A DNA stretch of 64,000 nucleotides from Escherichia coli (lineage in GTDB: Bacteria > Pseudomonadota > Gammaproteobacteria > Enterobacterales > Enterobacteriaceae). Position numbers and translations under genes: made by a program. Shown in pieces: positions 20,395 to 61,021 of the stretch. A model generated the notes under the pieces. That model did not search any database. It saw only the letters and a list, made by a program, of their open reading frames with translations, and was not told the origin of the DNA. The stretch lies in NCBI RefSeq assembly GCF_013122565.1, contig NZ_CP053258.1. One strand, given 5' to 3'. Every line of letters begins with the position of its first letter. The stretch's first letter is position 1.

Positions 20395-20560
20395 ATATTG
20401 CCGGATAAATTAAACGCCTCTGTCAGAAATGATGGGGGCGTTTTTATTTTGCGAGCAGCATTCCTGATTTTAAACGTGAACGCCGCTGGAAGAATTATCA
20501 GGTATAGAATGGCGTCGGGTGCTTGAGGCTGTCTGGCGTTAAGCATTCGCGAGGTTCCAG

Positions 20561-20665
20561 ATGGACAAAAGCCCCAGGCGATATTTCTATCAACCTGAGG
20601 CTTACGTTCGAACCCAAACAATTCGAATGTTAGTCTCTTCTTTGCAGGGAGGCAAGACATGCTGA
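20561..20665 (+). CDS. mok-like leader ORF overlapping the hok start
   Basis: 34-codon ORF whose TGA overlaps the hok ATG (ATGCTGA) in another frame, the arrangement typical of hok/mok loci. Confidence 0.3.
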
Positions 20666-20811
20666 CAAAATATGCCCTTGTGGCAATCATCGTACTGTGT
20701 TGTACAGTACTGGGATTCACGCTGATGGTAGGCGACTCGTTGTGTGAGTTGAGTATCAGAGAACGTGGTATGGAGTTTAAGGCAGTTCTCGCTTACGAAT
20801 CGAAGAAGTAG
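20659..20811 (+). CDS. Hok/Gef-family type I toxin (50 aa small membrane protein)
   Basis: Hand translation [50 protein letters not shown] has the Hok pattern (TM helix, then L-C-E-hydrophobic, then a conserved AYES-type C-terminus); absent from the ORF track because under 60 aa. Confidence 0.75.
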
Positions 20812-42710: not shown

Positions 42711-44789
42711 TTAAATCAATGCCGATTTATCAATTCCAAGCCGCTTCATCCGTGACAGCAGGGTCGTGCGTTTCAGCCCCAGACGTTGCGCAGCGCCTTT
42801 AGGCCCGGCAACCACGCCATTAGTTTCTTTCAGCACGCGCACAATCAACTGATATTCATCTTCGCCCTCCTGAGCGACAACCGTTGCGGCAGGCGGCGTT
42901 TCAGGTTCCGGTAAAGCAATATCTGGCAATGACAGCTGCAGCACGTTACCGCGTGTTAGCAATACCGCGCGCTCAATGACGTTTTCCAGTTCGCGTACGT
43001 TACCCGGCCACTCCATGTTGCTCAAGGTGCGCAGCGTCTCGGCAGGAATGCTGTCGATATTGCGCCCCAGACGACGGGCAATTTTGAAGGTAAAGGCTTT
43101 CGCCAGCAGAGGAATATCTTCCGGACGCTCGCGTAGTGGCGGCAGGTGAATCGGGAATACGTTCAGGCGGTAATAGAGATCGCTACGGAACTCACGGTCG
43201 GCGACCATTTTTTTCAGATCGCGGTTAGTCGCGGCGATTAGACGCACGTCCGTCTGAATGATTTTGTTGCTGCCGAGACGTTCAAACTCCTGTTCCTGTA
43301 ATACACGCAGCAACTTCGGCTGTAACTCCAGTGGCATATCGCCCACTTCGTCGAGGAACAGGGAGCTTTTATCCGCCAGTTCAAAACGACCAATGCGCTG
43401 GGCGCTGGCACCGGTAAAAGCTCCGCGTTCATGACCAAACAGATCGCTTTCCAGCAATCCGGCAGGCATTGCCGCGCAGTTCATTTTGACCATGCGGCGA
43501 GTATTACGTCCACTGAGATTATGGATAGCGCGGGCAATCAGCTCTTTACCCGTGCCAGTTTCACCGAGGATCAGCACGGTACTGTCACTTTGCGCCACCA
43601 TTTCAACTTGTTTAAGCACGCTGTACATGGCTTCGCTGCGGCCAATAATCTCGCCAAATTCACTATCAACATTGTTGAGCTGCTCGGTCAGGGCGAGGTT
43701 TTCATCAACCAGCCGTTCTTTCAGACGATGGATTTCCTGATAGGCGAGGGCGTTATCGACAGCGATTGCCACACGTTCGGCAATCTGGCGCAGTAAATTC
43801 AGATTGGTAGTGGTAAATACTTTCTCTTCGCATTGCGCCAGTTTCAGCACGCCCAGCATGGTGTCGCCAGACATCAGCGGTAACAGGCACAAGGTTTGAA
43901 TCTGGTTGCCCCAGGTGTCGAACAACATACGTTCATAGGGGGCTAAATCGTCCCGCTCGTGGAGATTGATCAGCAGCATCTCTTTACTTTTGAACACGCG
44001 TTCGGTGAGGGTTCCGGCTTCATCGACTTCACTCTGTTCGTGGGCGGGATGCTGTTTATCAAGATAGTGAGTGGAGTAGATGTTGAGTTTGTTTTTACGG
44101 TGGCTGCGTAAGACGATACTGATATCGTCAATATCGAAATAGTAATGGATTTCTTTGGCGACTTCGCTGACCAGTTCGTCCATATCCAGGCGGGAAAGCA
44201 CCGCGTTGGTGATGGCGACCAGGATGCGGAAGTTATCGCGTTCCCGGCATAACAACTCATAGTCAACATTGTTAACGACGCGACTCTGGATTTGTTCGGT
44301 GACGACAGAAACGATCTGCGTAAATGTTTGCAGACGATTGAACTCTTTTTCGCTCCAGGGGCGATCGTCATAACGAATAAATTCACAGCCACCAAAAATA
44401 TGCCCTTCTGCCGCCAGTGGCATCAGGCAATAGTGACCAAATTTTGGGTATAGCCCACCTGCGGCCAGCTGCGGCCAGGTTTCACAAAATTCTTCGTAAC
44501 TGCAATGCAGCGTATCAGGGCGCGACAAAATGCTGCGTACCGGACCGTGTGCCAGAACAGTTTCGTCTTCATATTTAATGGGGGTGTCTTTTTCACGCGA
44601 CGCGTAATAAGACGCACGTTGAGTCTGCGCTTGCCACAACACGATAGCCGCGTTGTCGGCGAGCGCAGAACGCTTTACCAGTTGCGAAAGAGCCTCACAC
44701 AGCGAGGCCAGATCGGGCTGCTGCAATAGTGTCCGAGTGATGTCGAACAACCCTTGCTGTCCGAGATCACTCATCGGTGTATATGACAT
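42711..44789 (-). CDS. fhlA: Formate hydrogenlyase transcriptional activator (sigma-54 enhancer-binding protein)
   Basis: ORF track 42711..44825; start at MSYTPMSDLGQQG gives 692 aa; GAF domains, AAA+ sigma-54 interaction module (GETGTGKE, GAFTGA), C-terminal HTH. Confidence 0.95.
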   Translation of the reverse strand: MSYTPMSDLGQQGLFDITRTLLQQPDLASLCEALSQLVKRSALADNAAIVLWQAQTQRASYYASREKDTPIKYEDETVLAHGPVRSILSRPDTLHCSYEEFCETWPQLAAGGLYPKFGHYCLMPLAAEGHIFGGCEFIRYDDRPWSEKEFNRLQTFTQIVSVVTEQIQSRVVNNVDYELLCRERDNFRILVAITNAVLSRLDMDELVSEVAKEIHYYFDIDDISIVLRSHRKNKLNIYSTHYLDKQHPAHEQSEVDEAGTLTERVFKSKEMLLINLHERDDLAPYERMLFDTWGNQIQTLCLLPLMSGDTMLGVLKLAQCEEKVFTTTNLNLLRQIAERVAIAVDNALAYQEIHRLKERLVDENLALTEQLNNVDSEFGEIIGRSEAMYSVLKQVEMVAQSDSTVLILGETGTGKELIARAIHNLSGRNTRRMVKMNCAAMPAGLLESDLFGHERGAFTGASAQRIGRFELADKSSLFLDEVGDMPLELQPKLLRVLQEQEFERLGSNKIIQTDVRLIAATNRDLKKMVADREFRSDLYYRLNVFPIHLPPLRERPEDIPLLAKAFTFKIARRLGRNIDSIPAETLRTLSNMEWPGNVRELENVIERAVLLTRGNVLQLSLPDIALPEPETPPAATVVAQEGEDEYQLIVRVLKETNGVVAGPKGAAQRLGLKRTTLLSRMKRLGIDKSALI

Positions 44790-47263: not shown

Positions 47264-48126
47264 CGCTGTGTCTCCAGCCAGTTCAGCCACTGGTCCATCC
47301 CTTCGCCGCTGGTGGCGGAAATAAGGATGATTTCAATTTCTGGATTGACTTCGCGGGCGCAGGCGATGCACTTCTCAACGTCAAAGTTGAGATACGGCAA
47401 AAGGTCAACTTTGTTGAGCAGCATCAGCGAGGCGGCGGCAAACATATGCGGATATTTCAGCGGTTTGTCTTCACCTTCGGTAACGGAAAGCACCGCTACT
47501 TTGTGTTTTTCACCGAGATCGAAGCTGGCCGGGCATACGAGGTTGCCAACGTTTTCGATAAACAGAATACCGTTATCGTCCAGTGGCAGACGCGGTGCGG
47601 CGTCGGCAATCATCTGTGCGTCAAGATGGCAGCCTTTACCGGTGTTCACCTGAATCGCTGGTGTACCGGTAGCGCGAATGCGTGCGGCATCGTTCACGGT
47701 TTGCTGGTCGCCTTCAATAACTGCGCACGGAACGCTGTCTTTCAGGCGCATTAAGGTTTCCGTCAGCAGGGTGGTTTTACCGGAACCAGGGCTGGAAACC
47801 AGGTTGAGCACCAGTTGCTTGCGGGCAGCAAAGCGCGCGCGGTTGCGTTCAGCCAGACGGTTATTTTTGTCCAGCACGTCAATTTCGACTTCCAGCATCC
47901 GACGCTGGCTCATGCCCGGCGCGTGAGTGCCCGCTTCGCCATGACCGTAATGCAGGTCGCCTTCTTCAGTCTGGCTGGGGGTAAATTCAGGCGCTTTAAT
48001 ACCGGTGATTTTCATCTTCGGGCGTGCCGCCGGGGCAAATGGCGCGCTACGAAACGCGGAATGAGGGTTATGTTCATCACCCTCGATATACAGGTTGCCT
48101 TCACCGCAACCGCATGTTGTACACAT
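47254..48126 (-). CDS. hypB: Hydrogenase nickel-incorporation GTPase HypB
   Basis: 290 aa; N-terminal CxxCGC metal site, His-rich stretch, GTPase P-loop GSGKTT. Confidence 0.95.
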
Positions 48127-48129
48127 CGC

Positions 48130-48480
48130 TCACTCCTGGTCTATTTCTATCCGCCGAATCTGTAAACCGTCGTCTGCCACAATCTGTAGCATGTCACCAT
48201 GACACTGTGGACAGCGGCGGACGCGCTGGGTCAGTAGCGTCACATACTGTTGGCATGTTTCACACCAGCATTCGGCCTCTTGTTCTTCGAGGTGCAGTTT
48301 ACAACCTTCCGCCACGCTGCCGCGGCAAACCAGATCAAAACAAAAGGCAAGAGAGCTGGTTTCGACACAAGAAAATGCGCCAATTTTGAGCCAGACCCCA
48401 GTTACGCGTTTTGCGCCGTGTTTTGCGGCCTGCTGTTCGATCAATTCCAGTGCCCGTTGGCAGAGGGTTATTTCGTGCAT
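48130..48480 (-). CDS. hypA: Hydrogenase nickel-incorporation protein HypA
   Basis: ORF track 48130..48492; start at MHEITLCQ gives 116 aa; zinc-finger CxxC pairs. Confidence 0.93.
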   Translation of the reverse strand: MHEITLCQRALELIEQQAAKHGAKRVTGVWLKIGAFSCVETSSLAFCFDLVCRGSVAEGCKLHLEEQEAECWCETCQQYVTLLTQRVRRCPQCHGDMLQIVADDGLQIRRIEIDQE

Positions 48481-48510
48481 ATCGCCTCCCATTAACTATT
48501 GCCAGCTACA

Positions 48511-48526
48511 AGCAATAATTGTGCCA
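48511..48526 (-). promoter_or_regulatory. Candidate sigma-54 promoter (-24/-12) for the hyp operon
   Basis: Minus strand reads TGGCAC-AATTA-TTGC, with GG and GC at consensus spacing, about 30 bp upstream of hypA. Confidence 0.55.
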
Positions 48527-48639
48527 GTGTTGATTATCCCTGCGGTGAATAATGTCGATGATGTCGAAATGACACGTCGACACGGCGACGAAATTCATCT
48601 TTAGCTTAAAAATCTCTTTAATAACAATAAATTGAAAGT

Positions 48640-48655
48640 TGGCACAAAAAATGCT
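48640..48655 (+). promoter_or_regulatory. Candidate sigma-54 promoter (-24/-12) for the hyc operon
   Basis: TGGCAC-AAAAA-ATGCT about 40 bp upstream of hycA; the FhlA-dependent hyc promoter is known to be sigma-54 type. Confidence 0.55.
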
Positions 48656-48691
48656 TAAAGCAGGCATCTCTGTTAAACGGGTAACCTGACA

Positions 48692-49153
48692 ATGACTATT
48701 TGGGAAATAAGCGAGAAAGCCGATTACATCGCACAGCGGCATCGTCGCCTACAGGACCAGTGGCACATCTACTGCAATTCGCTGGTTCAGGGGATCACGT
48801 TATCGAAAGCGCGCCTGCATCACGCCATGAGCTGCGCGCCGGACAAAGAACTCTGTTTCGTCCTTTTTGAACATTTTCGTATTTACGTCACCCTGGCGGA
48901 TGGCTTTAACAGCCACACCATCGAGTATTACGTCGAAACAAAAGATGGCGAAGACAAACAGCGGATTGCGCAGGCGCAACTGAGCATTGACGGCATGATT
49001 GATGGCAAGGTCAACATCCGCGATCGCGAACAGGTTCTGGAACACTATCTCGAAAAAATCGCTGGCGTTTACGACAGCTTATACACCGCTATTGAAAACA
49101 ATGTGCCGGTGAATTTAAGCCAACTGGTAAAGGGACAAAGCCCGGCAGCATGA
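48692..49153 (+). CDS. hycA: Formate hydrogenlyase regulatory protein HycA
   Basis: 153 aa; first gene of the hyc operon, divergent from hypA. Confidence 0.92.
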   Translation: MTIWEISEKADYIAQRHRRLQDQWHIYCNSLVQGITLSKARLHHAMSCAPDKELCFVLFEHFRIYVTLADGFNSHTIEYYVETKDGEDKQRIAQAQLSIDGMIDGKVNIRDREQVLEHYLEKIAGVYDSLYTAIENNVPVNLSQLVKGQSPAA

Positions 49154-49277
49154 GCTGAGGCTTTGCCCGTTTTGCAGGCGTTACGCCTGTTTGGGGATGG
49201 GCGTGTCGATGAGTGTCGAAAATGACATTTCATCAGCATGTTTTCGTCAAAAATGACAATCACCTGAGGAATGCCTG

Positions 49278-49889
49278 GTGAATCGTTTTGTAATTGCTGA
49301 CTCCACGCTCTGTATCGGCTGCCACACTTGTGAGGCCGCCTGTTCAGAGACGCATCGCCAGCACGGCCTGCAATCAATGCCGCGCCTGAGAGTGATGCTA
49401 AATGAAAAAGAATCTGCGCCGCAGCTCTGTCACCACTGTGAAGATGCACCCTGCGCAGTGGTCTGCCCGGTTAACGCCATCACCCGCGTTGATGGGGCCG
49501 TGCAGTTGAATGAAAGTCTGTGCGTAAGCTGCAAACTGTGCGGCATCGCCTGCCCGTTTGGCGCAATCGAATTTTCCGGCAGCCGTCCGCTGGATATTCC
49601 GGCAAACGCCAATACCCCAAAAGCGCCACCGGCACCGCCTGCTCCGGCGCGTGTCAGCACATTGCTTGACTGGGTGCCAGGTATTCGCGCGATCGCCGTC
49701 AAATGTGACCTTTGTAGCTTTGATGAACAAGGTCCGGCCTGCGTGCGGATGTGCCCGACCAAAGCCCTGCATCTGGTGGATAACACCGATATCGCCCGCG
49801 TCAGCAAACGTAAGCGTGAGCTGACCTTTAACACGGACTTTGGCGATCTCACCTTGTTTCAGCAGGCTCAAAGTGGAGAGGCTAAATGA
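49278..49889 (+). CDS. hycB: Formate hydrogenlyase subunit 2 (4Fe-4S ferredoxin)
   Basis: 203 aa; several CxxCxxCxxxCP motifs. Confidence 0.95.
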   Translation: MNRFVIADSTLCIGCHTCEAACSETHRQHGLQSMPRLRVMLNEKESAPQLCHHCEDAPCAVVCPVNAITRVDGAVQLNESLCVSCKLCGIACPFGAIEFSGSRPLDIPANANTPKAPPAPPAPARVSTLLDWVPGIRAIAVKCDLCSFDEQGPACVRMCPTKALHLVDNTDIARVSKRKRELTFNTDFGDLTLFQQAQSGEAK

Positions 49890-51712
49890 GCGCAATTTCC
49901 CTGATCAATAGCGGCGTGGCGTGGTTTGTCGCCGCCGCTGTTCTGGCATTTCTCTTTTCTTTTCAAAAAGCGCTAAGTGGCTGGATAGCCGGAATTGGCG
50001 GCGCGGTTGGTAGTCTGTATACGGCAGCCGCGGGCTTCATTGTACTGACTGGCGCGGTTGGCGTGAGCGGTGCGCTGTCGCTGGTAAGCTACGATGTGCA
50101 AATCTCTCCGCTTAACGCGATTTGGCTGATTACGCTCGGTCTGTGCGGTCTGTTTGTCAGCCTCTACAACATTGACTGGCATCGCCACGCGCAGGTGAAG
50201 TGCAACGGCTTGCAGATCAATATGTTGATGGCTGCCGCCGTCTGCGCAGTCATCGCCAGCAACCTCGGCATGTTCGTGGTAATGGCCGAAGTCATGGCCT
50301 TGTGCGCGGTGTTCCTCACCAACAACAGCAAAGAGGGCAAACTGTGGTTTGCGCTGGGGCGTCTTGGCACTCTGCTGCTGGCGATTGCTTGCTGGCTGCT
50401 GTGGCAGCGTTATGGCACGCTGGATCTGCGCCTGCTGGATATGCGTATGCAACAGCTGCCGCTCGGTTCCGATATCTGGCTGCTCGGTGTGATTGGCTTT
50501 GGCCTGCTGGCCGGGATTATTCCGCTGCACGGCTGGGTGCCGCAGGCACATGCTAACGCCTCTGCGCCAGCTGCCGCGTTGTTTTCTACGGTAGTCATGA
50601 AAATTGGCCTGCTGGGCATTTTAACCCTGTCGCTGCTGGGCGGTAATGCACCGCTGTGGTGGGGGATCGCGCTGCTGGTGCTCGGCATGATCACCGCGTT
50701 CGTCGGTGGTCTGTATGCGTTGATGGAACACAACATCCAGCGCCTGCTGGCTTACCACACCCTGGAAAATATCGGCATTATCCTGCTGGGGCTGGGCGCT
50801 GGCGTAACGGGTATCGCGCTCGAACAACCGGCGCTGATTGCTCTTGGCCTGGTCGGTGGTCTGTACCATCTGCTTAACCATAGCCTGTTCAAAAGCGTAC
50901 TTTTCCTCGGGGCGGGGAGCGTCTGGTTCCGTACCGGTCATCGCGATATCGAAAAACTCGGTGGTATTGGCAAGAAAATGCCGGTTATCTCCATCGCCAT
51001 GTTAGTCGGGCTGATGGCAATGGCTGCGCTGCCGCCGCTGAACGGGTTTGCCGGGGAATGGGTTATCTATCAATCCTTCTTCAAGCTGAGCAATAGTGGC
51101 GCGTTTGTTGCCCGTCTGCTGGGGCCGCTGCTCGCAGTGGGGCTGGCAATTACCGGTGCGCTGGCGGTGATGTGTATGGCGAAAGTCTATGGCGTCACGT
51201 TCCTCGGCGCGCCGCGTACCAAAGAAGCCGAAAACGCCACCTGTGCGCCGCTCCTGATGAGCGTAAGCGTAGTGGCACTGGCGATTTGCTGCGTAATTGG
51301 CGGTGTTGCTGCGCCGTGGCTGCTGCCGATGCTCTCTGCTGCTGTACCTCTGCCGCTGGAGCCTGCTAACACCACCGTTTCTCAACCAATGATCACGTTG
51401 CTGCTGATTGCCTGCCCGCTGCTGCCATTCATCATTATGGCGATTTGCAAAGGCGATCGTTTGCCGTCGCGTTCCCGCGGCGCGGCCTGGGTGTGCGGCT
51501 ACGACCATGAAAAATCAATGGTAATTACCGCCCACGGTTTTGCCATGCCGGTGAAACAGGCGTTTGCGCCGGTGCTGAAACTGCGCAAATGGCTGAATCC
51601 GGTGTCGCTGGTGCCGGGCTGGCAGTGCGAGGGGAGTGCGTTGCTGTTCCGCCGGATGGCGCTGGTTGAACTGGCGGTACTGGTGGTGATTATTGTTTCA
51701 CGAGGAGCCTGA
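49886..51712 (+). CDS. hycC: Formate hydrogenlyase subunit 3 (membrane antiporter-like)
   Basis: 608 aa polytopic membrane protein of the NuoL/M/N family. Confidence 0.95.
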   Translation: MSAISLINSGVAWFVAAAVLAFLFSFQKALSGWIAGIGGAVGSLYTAAAGFIVLTGAVGVSGALSLVSYDVQISPLNAIWLITLGLCGLFVSLYNIDWHRHAQVKCNGLQINMLMAAAVCAVIASNLGMFVVMAEVMALCAVFLTNNSKEGKLWFALGRLGTLLLAIACWLLWQRYGTLDLRLLDMRMQQLPLGSDIWLLGVIGFGLLAGIIPLHGWVPQAHANASAPAAALFSTVVMKIGLLGILTLSLLGGNAPLWWGIALLVLGMITAFVGGLYALMEHNIQRLLAYHTLENIGIILLGLGAGVTGIALEQPALIALGLVGGLYHLLNHSLFKSVLFLGAGSVWFRTGHRDIEKLGGIGKKMPVISIAMLVGLMAMAALPPLNGFAGEWVIYQSFFKLSNSGAFVARLLGPLLAVGLAITGALAVMCMAKVYGVTFLGAPRTKEAENATCAPLLMSVSVVALAICCVIGGVAAPWLLPMLSAAVPLPLEPANTTVSQPMITLLLIACPLLPFIIMAICKGDRLPSRSRGAAWVCGYDHEKSMVITAHGFAMPVKQAFAPVLKLRKWLNPVSLVPGWQCEGSALLFRRMALVELAVLVVIIVSRGA

Positions 51713-60873: not shown

Positions 60874-60887
60874 ACATTGTCATCACA

Positions 60888-60921
60888 TGTCATCGTCACT
60901 AGTGTCGATGACATCTTTTTT
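60888..60921 (+). terminator. ascG rho-independent terminator
   Basis: tgtcatcg-tcactagtg-tcgatgaca hairpin followed by tcttttttcc, 15 bp after the ascG stop. Confidence 0.7.
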
Positions 60922-61021
60922 CCTGCATTACAGAAATTAATTTCCTTAAATAACAGTGAATTAAAAACTGGCATGATTTGTGAATGTATCGGCGCATTAA
61001 CTGTCATTGCTGGAGAATTTG

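Follow-up and report, generated by a model that had tools for sequence, protein, structure and literature searches.

The 64-kb stretch of DNA that we analyzed (hereafter, the window) is the hyp-hyc-fhlA region of Escherichia coli. Its segment from 48100 to 49200 was matched at ≥ 95% identity in 5425 of 5426 complete E. coli genomes, with a top match of 99.8%. In an annotated relative that is 99.8% identical, the genes run mutS, ygbA, fhlA and hypEDCBA on one strand, then hycABCDEFGHI on the opposite strand, and onward to ascBFG and hydN-hypF. Together with the list of open reading frames, this RefSeq annotation placed hypA, the first gene of the hypABCDE-fhlA unit, at 48130-48480 on the minus strand. 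The gene on the other side, hycA (48692-49153, plus strand), encodes an anti-activator of FhlA and is the first gene of hycABCDEFGHI; hycB starts at 49278. The true start of hypA is the ATG at 48480 (minus strand), giving a protein that begins MHEITLCQ. HypA matched the NCBIfam HypA subfamily (241.8 bits) and HycA matched an NCBIfam equivalog (298.5 bits). The hyp unit ends with fhlA (42711-44789, minus strand, placed by open reading frame and annotation), which encodes a sigma-54 enhancer-binding activator. The fhlA product matched the NCBIfam equivalog for the formate hydrogenlyase transcriptional activator over its full length (1547 bits versus a cutoff of 830), and the window therefore carries the gene for an enhancer-binding protein cognate to sigma-54 promoters.

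The divergent spacer between hypA and hycA spans 211 bp (48481-48691). Relative to K-12 MG1655, only 2 of the 211 bases differ, at 48634 (G for A) and 48662 (A for T), and both lie outside the sigma-54 elements and the enhancer module described below. For comparison across species, we collected 80 Enterobacteriaceae loci encoding HycA, with one genome per species, from genera including Escherichia, Salmonella, Citrobacter, Enterobacter, Klebsiella, Kluyvera, Raoultella, and Kosakonia. With the window, this made 81 aligned sequences. The divergent hypA-hycA arrangement was kept in all 80 loci, with spacers of 188 to 223 bp, and the spacer alignment showed free divergence over most of its length and a small number of conserved blocks that stand out. 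Elsewhere in the window, and unrelated to the hyp and hyc promoters, a sok antitoxin RNA (Rfam RF01794, 113 bits) was matched at 20517-20674 on the plus strand, indicating a chromosomal hok/sok-type toxin-antitoxin locus.

Two sigma-54 elements stand in this spacer, located by pattern search, matrix scoring, alignment, and identity to sites mapped by ChIP-seq in K-12. The hyp element, CTGGCACAATTATTGCT, occupies 48511-48527 on the minus strand, and the hyc element, TTGGCACAAAAAATGCT, occupies 48639-48655 on the plus strand. The core of the former, TGGCACAATTATTGC (48512-48526), has no mismatches to TGGCAC-N5-TTGC, and that of the latter, TGGCACAAAAAATGC (48640-48654), has one (ATGC for TTGC). 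Each keeps the GG-N10-GC spacing and points toward its own gene, with the -24 GG and -12 GC at 48525-48524 and 48513-48512 for hyp and at 48641-48642 and 48653-48654 for hyc. From the position of the motifs, transcription is predicted to start at about 48500 for hyp and about 48666 for hyc, 166 bp apart, leaving predicted leaders of about 20 and 26 nt, respectively.

Consensus matches could in principle occur by chance in an A/T-rich spacer, with transcription of hyp and hyc starting elsewhere. Searching the window for the loose consensus TGGCACNNNNNTTGC with one mismatch allowed lent this explanation some weight, as it returned 6 matches versus 7.7 expected, which is no enrichment. Because the count was at the level of chance, counting consensus matches provides no evidence, and we used matrix scoring instead. 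The first matrix was derived from 39 intergenic ChIP-seq sites of K-12, after excluding three sites that fall within the window, and the second, independent of the first, was the Barrios matrix of 186 promoters as printed in PMC7658346. With the ChIP-seq-derived matrix, the hyp element scored 21.3, more than any of the training sites, and the score of the hyc element was 17.4. These were the best two scores among 128,000 scanned positions (64 kb, both strands), and the Barrios matrix gave the same ranking (19.0 and 15.3). Across 200 dinucleotide-preserving shuffles the maximum score averaged 16.3; three sites scoring at least 16 sometimes arose, and the largest value, reached by one shuffle, was 21.7. 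Against this, an independent-base background predicts 0.001 sites per 128,000 positions at the hyp score and 0.09 at the hyc score, and the expectation for both at such positions is about 2e-11. The occurrence of both sites, correctly oriented and within a few tens of bases of divergent starts, is far beyond chance. The original prediction had placed TGGCAC-N5-TTGC-type elements on both strands at sensible distances from the start codons and had named a sigma-54 weight-matrix scan as the check. The placement was correct and agrees with the pattern search, the motifs face hypA and hycA with predicted leaders of 20 and 26 nt, and the scan ranks the two elements first and second in 64 kb.

Conservation weighed further against chance matches. 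The TGGCA and TTGC of the hyp element were invariant in 81 of 81 aligned sequences, with matrix scores across the alignment no lower than 16.7 (median 18.5). The TGGCA and TGC of the hyc element were likewise invariant, with a median score of 15.6. The GG and GC cores of both elements are thus constant in 81 sequences, whereas the neighboring spacer diverges freely. Distances to the genes were also kept: the hypA ATG lies 29 to 35 bp from the -12 element in 78 of 79 loci, and the hyc TGGCA lies 50 to 53 bp from the hycA ATG.

Published experiments bear directly on these two elements, as the 17-mers TTGGCACAAAAAATGCT and CTGGCACAATTATTGCT are letter-identical to the motifs of the K-12 sigma-54 ChIP-seq sites OS27 (hycA) and OS28 (hypA). 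OS28 has a fold-above-threshold of 201, the highest intergenic value in K-12, and OS27 has a value of 91 (Bonocora et al. 2015, PMC4591121). Both are marked there as experimentally confirmed promoters in EcoCyc, with predicted starts 26 nt from hycA and 20 nt from hypA (PMC4591121). Genomic SELEX in vitro also placed a peak of RpoN holoenzyme within the hycA/hypA spacer (PMC8743547). In Salmonella, ChIP-chip found sigma-54 bound at the homologous hyc and hyp sites, and expression depended on sigma-54 by 26-fold for hyc and 5.6-fold for hyp; the activator given there is FhlA (PMC3844500). The original prediction would be refuted by mapped transcription starts inconsistent with these elements, and this was checked indirectly, by way of the ChIP-seq sites and secondary citations. 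Together with the scores, orientation, and conservation, binding of identical sequences in vivo and in vitro (PMC4591121, PMC8743547) effectively refutes the explanation by chance matches already, and we give it next to no probability. The two elements are the known promoters hypAp and hycAp. The K-12 pair has the same 17-mers, 128-bp distance between motif centers, flanking genes, and leader lengths, and is the same locus in another strain, differing in that the spacer of the window carries two single-base changes. In K-12 coordinates (NC_000913.3), the motif centers are 2850480 for hyc and 2850608 for hyp, with predicted starts at 2850461 and 2850627, respectively. Identity to the K-12 ChIP-seq sites and the sigma-54 dependence in Salmonella with FhlA as activator also bear out the earlier proposal that these elements serve FhlA-activated transcription of the formate hydrogenlyase system.

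The sigma-54 promoters and enhancer of hyp and hyc are already known and were first described in 1990. PMC3844500 credits the original description to Lutz, Böhm, Beier and Böck (1990), ‘Characterization of divergent NtrA-dependent promoters...’. Given this date, the promoter finding restates a result more than 30 years old. Schlensog 1994 and Leonhartsberger 2000 are the works cited for binding of FhlA upstream of fdhF and hyc.

We also considered whether a sigma-70 promoter, possibly FNR-dependent, might be the main driver of hyp, with the sigma-54 element secondary. One sigma-70-like hexamer pair is present at 48492-48519 on the plus strand. In addition, an FNR-dependent promoter inside hypA has been reported to give formate-independent expression of hypBCDE. 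However, the hexamer pair is at chance frequency (1 found versus 1.4 expected) and points away from hypA, and an internal FNR promoter would add to the sigma-54 promoter, not replace it. The strongest intergenic sigma-54 occupancy in K-12 is at the hypA site itself (PMC4591121), and hyp is sigma-54-dependent in Salmonella (PMC3844500). We therefore regard a sigma-70 promoter as very improbable in the role of main driver of hyp.

Downstream of the predicted hyc start, the hycA leader (48667-48691, TCTC...TAAACGGGTAACCTGAC before the ATG) was better conserved across genera than the surrounding spacer. Folding of the predicted 5' UTR of hycA (48666-48720) was no better than that of shuffled sequences (z = 0.47), and no Rfam families were matched in the hyp/hyc promoter region.

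Between the two promoters lies a candidate FhlA enhancer, or upstream activating site, at 48553-48582, proposed from an FhlA matrix, conservation, and duplication. It consists of a 22-bp module, TGTCGATGATGTCGAAATGACA (48553-48574), followed by CGTCGAC, and a less conserved extension, GGCGACGAAATTCAT, reaches 48598. The interval 48553-48583 holds GTCGA three times and GACA twice. In the alignment of 81 sequences, a core reading ATGTCGAnGA..TGwCGAAATGACAyGTC between the promoters was conserved across genera. We scored FhlA sites with a 14-mer matrix, TGTC-RAWRAT-GWCA, drawn from 13 characterized sites (PMC7658346 Table 2). The second best score in the window, 16.0, was at 48553-48566 (TGTCGATGATGTCG), a match that is partly circular because the matrix probably includes these very sequences. 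Within the 64 kb, the pattern TGTCGATGA(n)TGTCGAAA(n)TGACA was found at 48553-48574, at 49204-49227, and nowhere else, and none of 100 shuffles contained it. Aligning the enhancer regions without gaps in MAFFT put them out of register, and that alignment was set aside; the pattern with two gaps of 0-1 nt revealed the shared module.

A different description of the FhlA site was less informative. A review quotes the 16-bp palindrome CATTTCGTACGAAATG as the FhlA consensus (PMC4987338). This palindrome is not present between the promoters, and the best 16-mer nearby matched it at 10 of 16 positions across the hypA start codon (48469-48484). Its half-sites, accepted at 7 of 8 positions, included two in the repeats (48564-48571 and 48588-48595), and the window as a whole held 50 versus 49 expected. 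The palindrome does not discriminate FhlA sites here. GTCGA/GACA-containing repeats between the promoters had been suggested beforehand as possible FhlA sites, and the matrix match, the conservation across genera, and the duplicate module all favor that suggestion. Taken together, the sequence evidence supports these repeats as a putative FhlA enhancer. A terminator-like hairpin at 48590-48575 (minus strand) was rejected as a separate feature, as it is at chance frequency and simply belongs to the GTCGAC repeats.

The second copy of the module is in the spacer between hycA and hycB, outside the interval of the original prediction, which did not include it. This enhancer-like element (49204-49257), recognized by the FhlA matrix, the duplicate module, and the alignment, is made up of TGTCGATGAGTGTCGAAAATGACA (49204-49227) and TTTCGTCAAAAATGAC (49242-49257). 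The best FhlA matrix score in the window, 17.4, is at 49214-49227 (TGTCGAAAATGACA), and a further match of 12.1 is at 49245-49258. Across the 81 aligned sequences, the GTGTCGA..GTGTCG core of the module was invariant except for one column at ≥ 90%, and TTTCGTCAAAAATGAC was invariant at 14 of 16 positions, with the other two at ≥ 90%. No other non-coding sequence in the locus is as well conserved as the module together with TTTCGTCAAAAATGAC. Only 20 bp separate the element from hycB, and they hold no sigma-54 motif, which implies that the module must act at a distance. Judging from these features of the sequence, it is most likely a second FhlA enhancer. A full-text literature search with the enhancer sequences and ‘hycA and hycB’ found nothing relevant.

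The same spacer contains a perfect hairpin, CAGGCGTTACGCCTG, at 49180-49194 just 3' of hycA, a sequence that the window shares with E. albertii. The segment bearing the hairpin is present in the genera with longer hycA-hycB spacers (Escherichia, Citrobacter, Salmonella, and Intestinirhabdus), and most other genera are without it. The hairpin might be a partial terminator or a stabilizer after hycA.

Spacing offers a way to consider how the two modules relate to the two promoters. Measured to the predicted starts, the center of the spacer module lies about 100 bp upstream for hyc and about 63 bp upstream for hyp, and the hycA-hycB module lies about 730 bp upstream for hyp. In the species compared, the two TGGCA elements are 91, 101-102, or 113-115 bp apart (111 bp in one locus), and the enhancer core is 53, 64-67, or 75-76 bp away from the hyc TGGCA. 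Both distances change by about one helical turn at a time, as would be expected if enhancer and promoter make contact on a particular face of the helix, across a loop bent by IHF.

An IHF-like site, TAACAATAAATTG, lies on the plus strand at 48622-48634, with one mismatch to WATCAANNNNTTR and 18 bp upstream of the hyc TGGCA. In 27 of 81 sequences, a perfect WATCAANNNNTTR stands at this offset (18-19 bp), although this consensus is low in information. The A/T-rich block beside the hyc -24 element was conserved in the alignment and reads AATCAAnnnnTTA in many species.

Given this geometry, we weighed two ways of pairing modules with promoters. In the first, the spacer module most likely serves hyc and the hycA-hycB module most likely serves hyp, an assignment that draws on geometry and on literature from the Böck laboratory, in which we take the hycA-hycB module to be the hyp enhancer. 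In the second, there is one shared enhancer: the spacer module would activate both hyc and hyp, and the hycA-hycB module would have another role, such as boosting hyc from downstream or titrating FhlA close to the hycA gene. A shared enhancer would suit the quasi-palindromic form of the spacer, whose 27-nt arms (48500-48526 and 48640-48666) are 78% complementary with the enhancer near the dyad, and the helical-turn steps in the distance between promoters fit a shared geometry. However, about 63 bp to the predicted hyp start is short for looping to a sigma-54 closed complex, compared with about 100 bp to that of hyc. Sharing also sits poorly with a hycA-hycB module whose core is near-invariant and which has no sigma-54 motif of its own at 20 bp from hycB, as well as with the role in hyp expression that we presume for this module. 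We consider a shared enhancer rather doubtful, and lean toward separate enhancers, the spacer module for hyc and the hycA-hycB module for hyp, as the probable arrangement, with only moderate confidence.

The matrices also drew attention to a third sigma-54-like motif, GTGGCACATCTACTGCA, at 48760-48776 on the plus strand, which was not part of the original prediction. It lies inside hycA, 69 bp into the gene and 121 bp from the hyc promoter, and it scored third best in the window (16.4 with the ChIP-seq-derived matrix and 15.1 with the Barrios matrix). No separate ChIP-seq peak is listed at this motif (PMC4591121), although ChIP-seq lacks the resolution to separate it from the strong OS27 peak 121 bp away. 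The -24 GG of the motif is part of the invariant Trp24 codon and the -12 GC is part of the Cys28 codon, which allowed us to compare synonymous codons. Across 81 sequences, the ratio of TGC to TGT was 62:19 at Cys28, 62:19 at the control Cys48, and 41:13 at Cys55. The codon after Trp24 varies among His, Arg, and Gln, and the score of the site drops to 6.8-10 in many genera. Hence, this synonymous-site test of 81 sequences gave no sign of selection at the motif beyond that on the protein sequence.

The W-H-x-Y-C coding sequence probably gives rise to the motif inside hycA as a by-product, and fortuitous binding of sigma-54 to the motif in E. coli is possible. A functional internal promoter, fed by a flanking FhlA enhancer and transcribing hycB-I without full-length hycA, is unlikely. 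Were it true, expression of the structural genes of the hydrogenase would no longer be coupled to that of their anti-activator. We also rejected an enhancer within the 120 nt at the start of hycA, where conservation tracks codon structure only. Within hycC, the sequence GTGGCGCGTTTGTTGCC (51096-51112, plus strand) has a sigma-54 score of 11.7 and is intragenic site IS31, a weak sigma-54 ChIP-seq site with a fold-above-threshold of 1 (Bonocora et al. 2015, PMC4591121).

The layout of hyc and hyp can be compared with that of other FhlA-dependent transcription units. The fdhF, hydN-hypF, and hyf promoters share with hyc and hyp the sigma-54 -24/-12 element and upstream repeats of the GTCG/GTCA...TGAC/GACA type. 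Related GTCA, TGAC, and CGTCAAAA motifs are found upstream of the hydN and fdhF sigma-54 promoters; the repeats read TGTCATCACATGTCATCGTCACTAGTGTCGATGACA upstream of hydN and TTTCGTCACGTCAAAACTGACGA upstream of K-12 fdhF. Upstream of the K-12 fdhF promoter lies CGTCAAAACTGACGA. In the window, the hydN-hypF sigma-54 promoter is CTGGCATGATTTGTGAA at 60968-60984 on the plus strand, which is K-12 ChIP-seq site OS26. It has a degenerate -12 element (GTGAA) and a ChIP-seq-derived matrix score of only 8.5. The GTCA/GACA repeats before it (60876-60915) resemble FhlA sites, with scores of only 4-7 from the FhlA 14-mer matrix. Unlike fdhF, hydN-hypF, and hyf, the hyc and hyp units are divergent from one common spacer and have two copies of a longer module of 22-24 bp, one of which is hundreds of base pairs away, beyond hycA.

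A similar layout is seen at IHF-assisted, enhancer-dependent sigma-54 promoters in general, such as nifH and glnHp2, which have an enhancer about 100 bp upstream and an A/T-rich IHF-type site between the enhancer and the -24 element. Spacing that varies by whole helical turns is common to these promoters and hyc/hyp. They differ in that the activator of hyc and hyp, FhlA, senses formate through its N-terminal domain and is not a phosphorylated response regulator, and in that the IHF site at hyc is putative.

Overall, the region is almost certainly the control region of the formate hydrogenlyase regulon, comprising two divergent sigma-54 promoters and FhlA enhancer modules. The hyp promoter drives hypABCDE-fhlA leftward and the hyc promoter drives hycABCDEFGHI rightward. 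Sigma-54 RNA polymerase occupies each promoter, as ChIP-seq on the identical K-12 sequence shows, in a closed complex that is unable to open the DNA alone. In the mechanism that we propose, based on the matrix match, conservation, and duplication, formate-activated FhlA would bind the GTCGA/GACA-type modules. A bend introduced by IHF at the A/T-rich site beside the hyc promoter may aid looping of the DNA. Enhancer-binding proteins of bacteria open sigma-54 promoters by ATP hydrolysis, and hydrolysis of ATP by FhlA would then open these promoters. With fhlA in the hyp unit and hycA first in hyc, the arrangement implies both positive and negative feedback on FhlA.

These results have value mainly as a calibration, in that a reading of the sequence alone placed two established sigma-54 promoters and an enhancer to the base. 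Beyond that reading, our analysis adds the second enhancer module, the IHF-like site, and the motif inside hycA that is not under selection of its own. For engineering the expression of hyc and hyp, it could be useful to know that a duplicated module with a near-invariant core brackets hycA, that spacing changes in helical-turn steps, and that the test for selection on the motif inside hycA was negative. Through this region, formate switches on the production of hydrogen in enteric bacteria.
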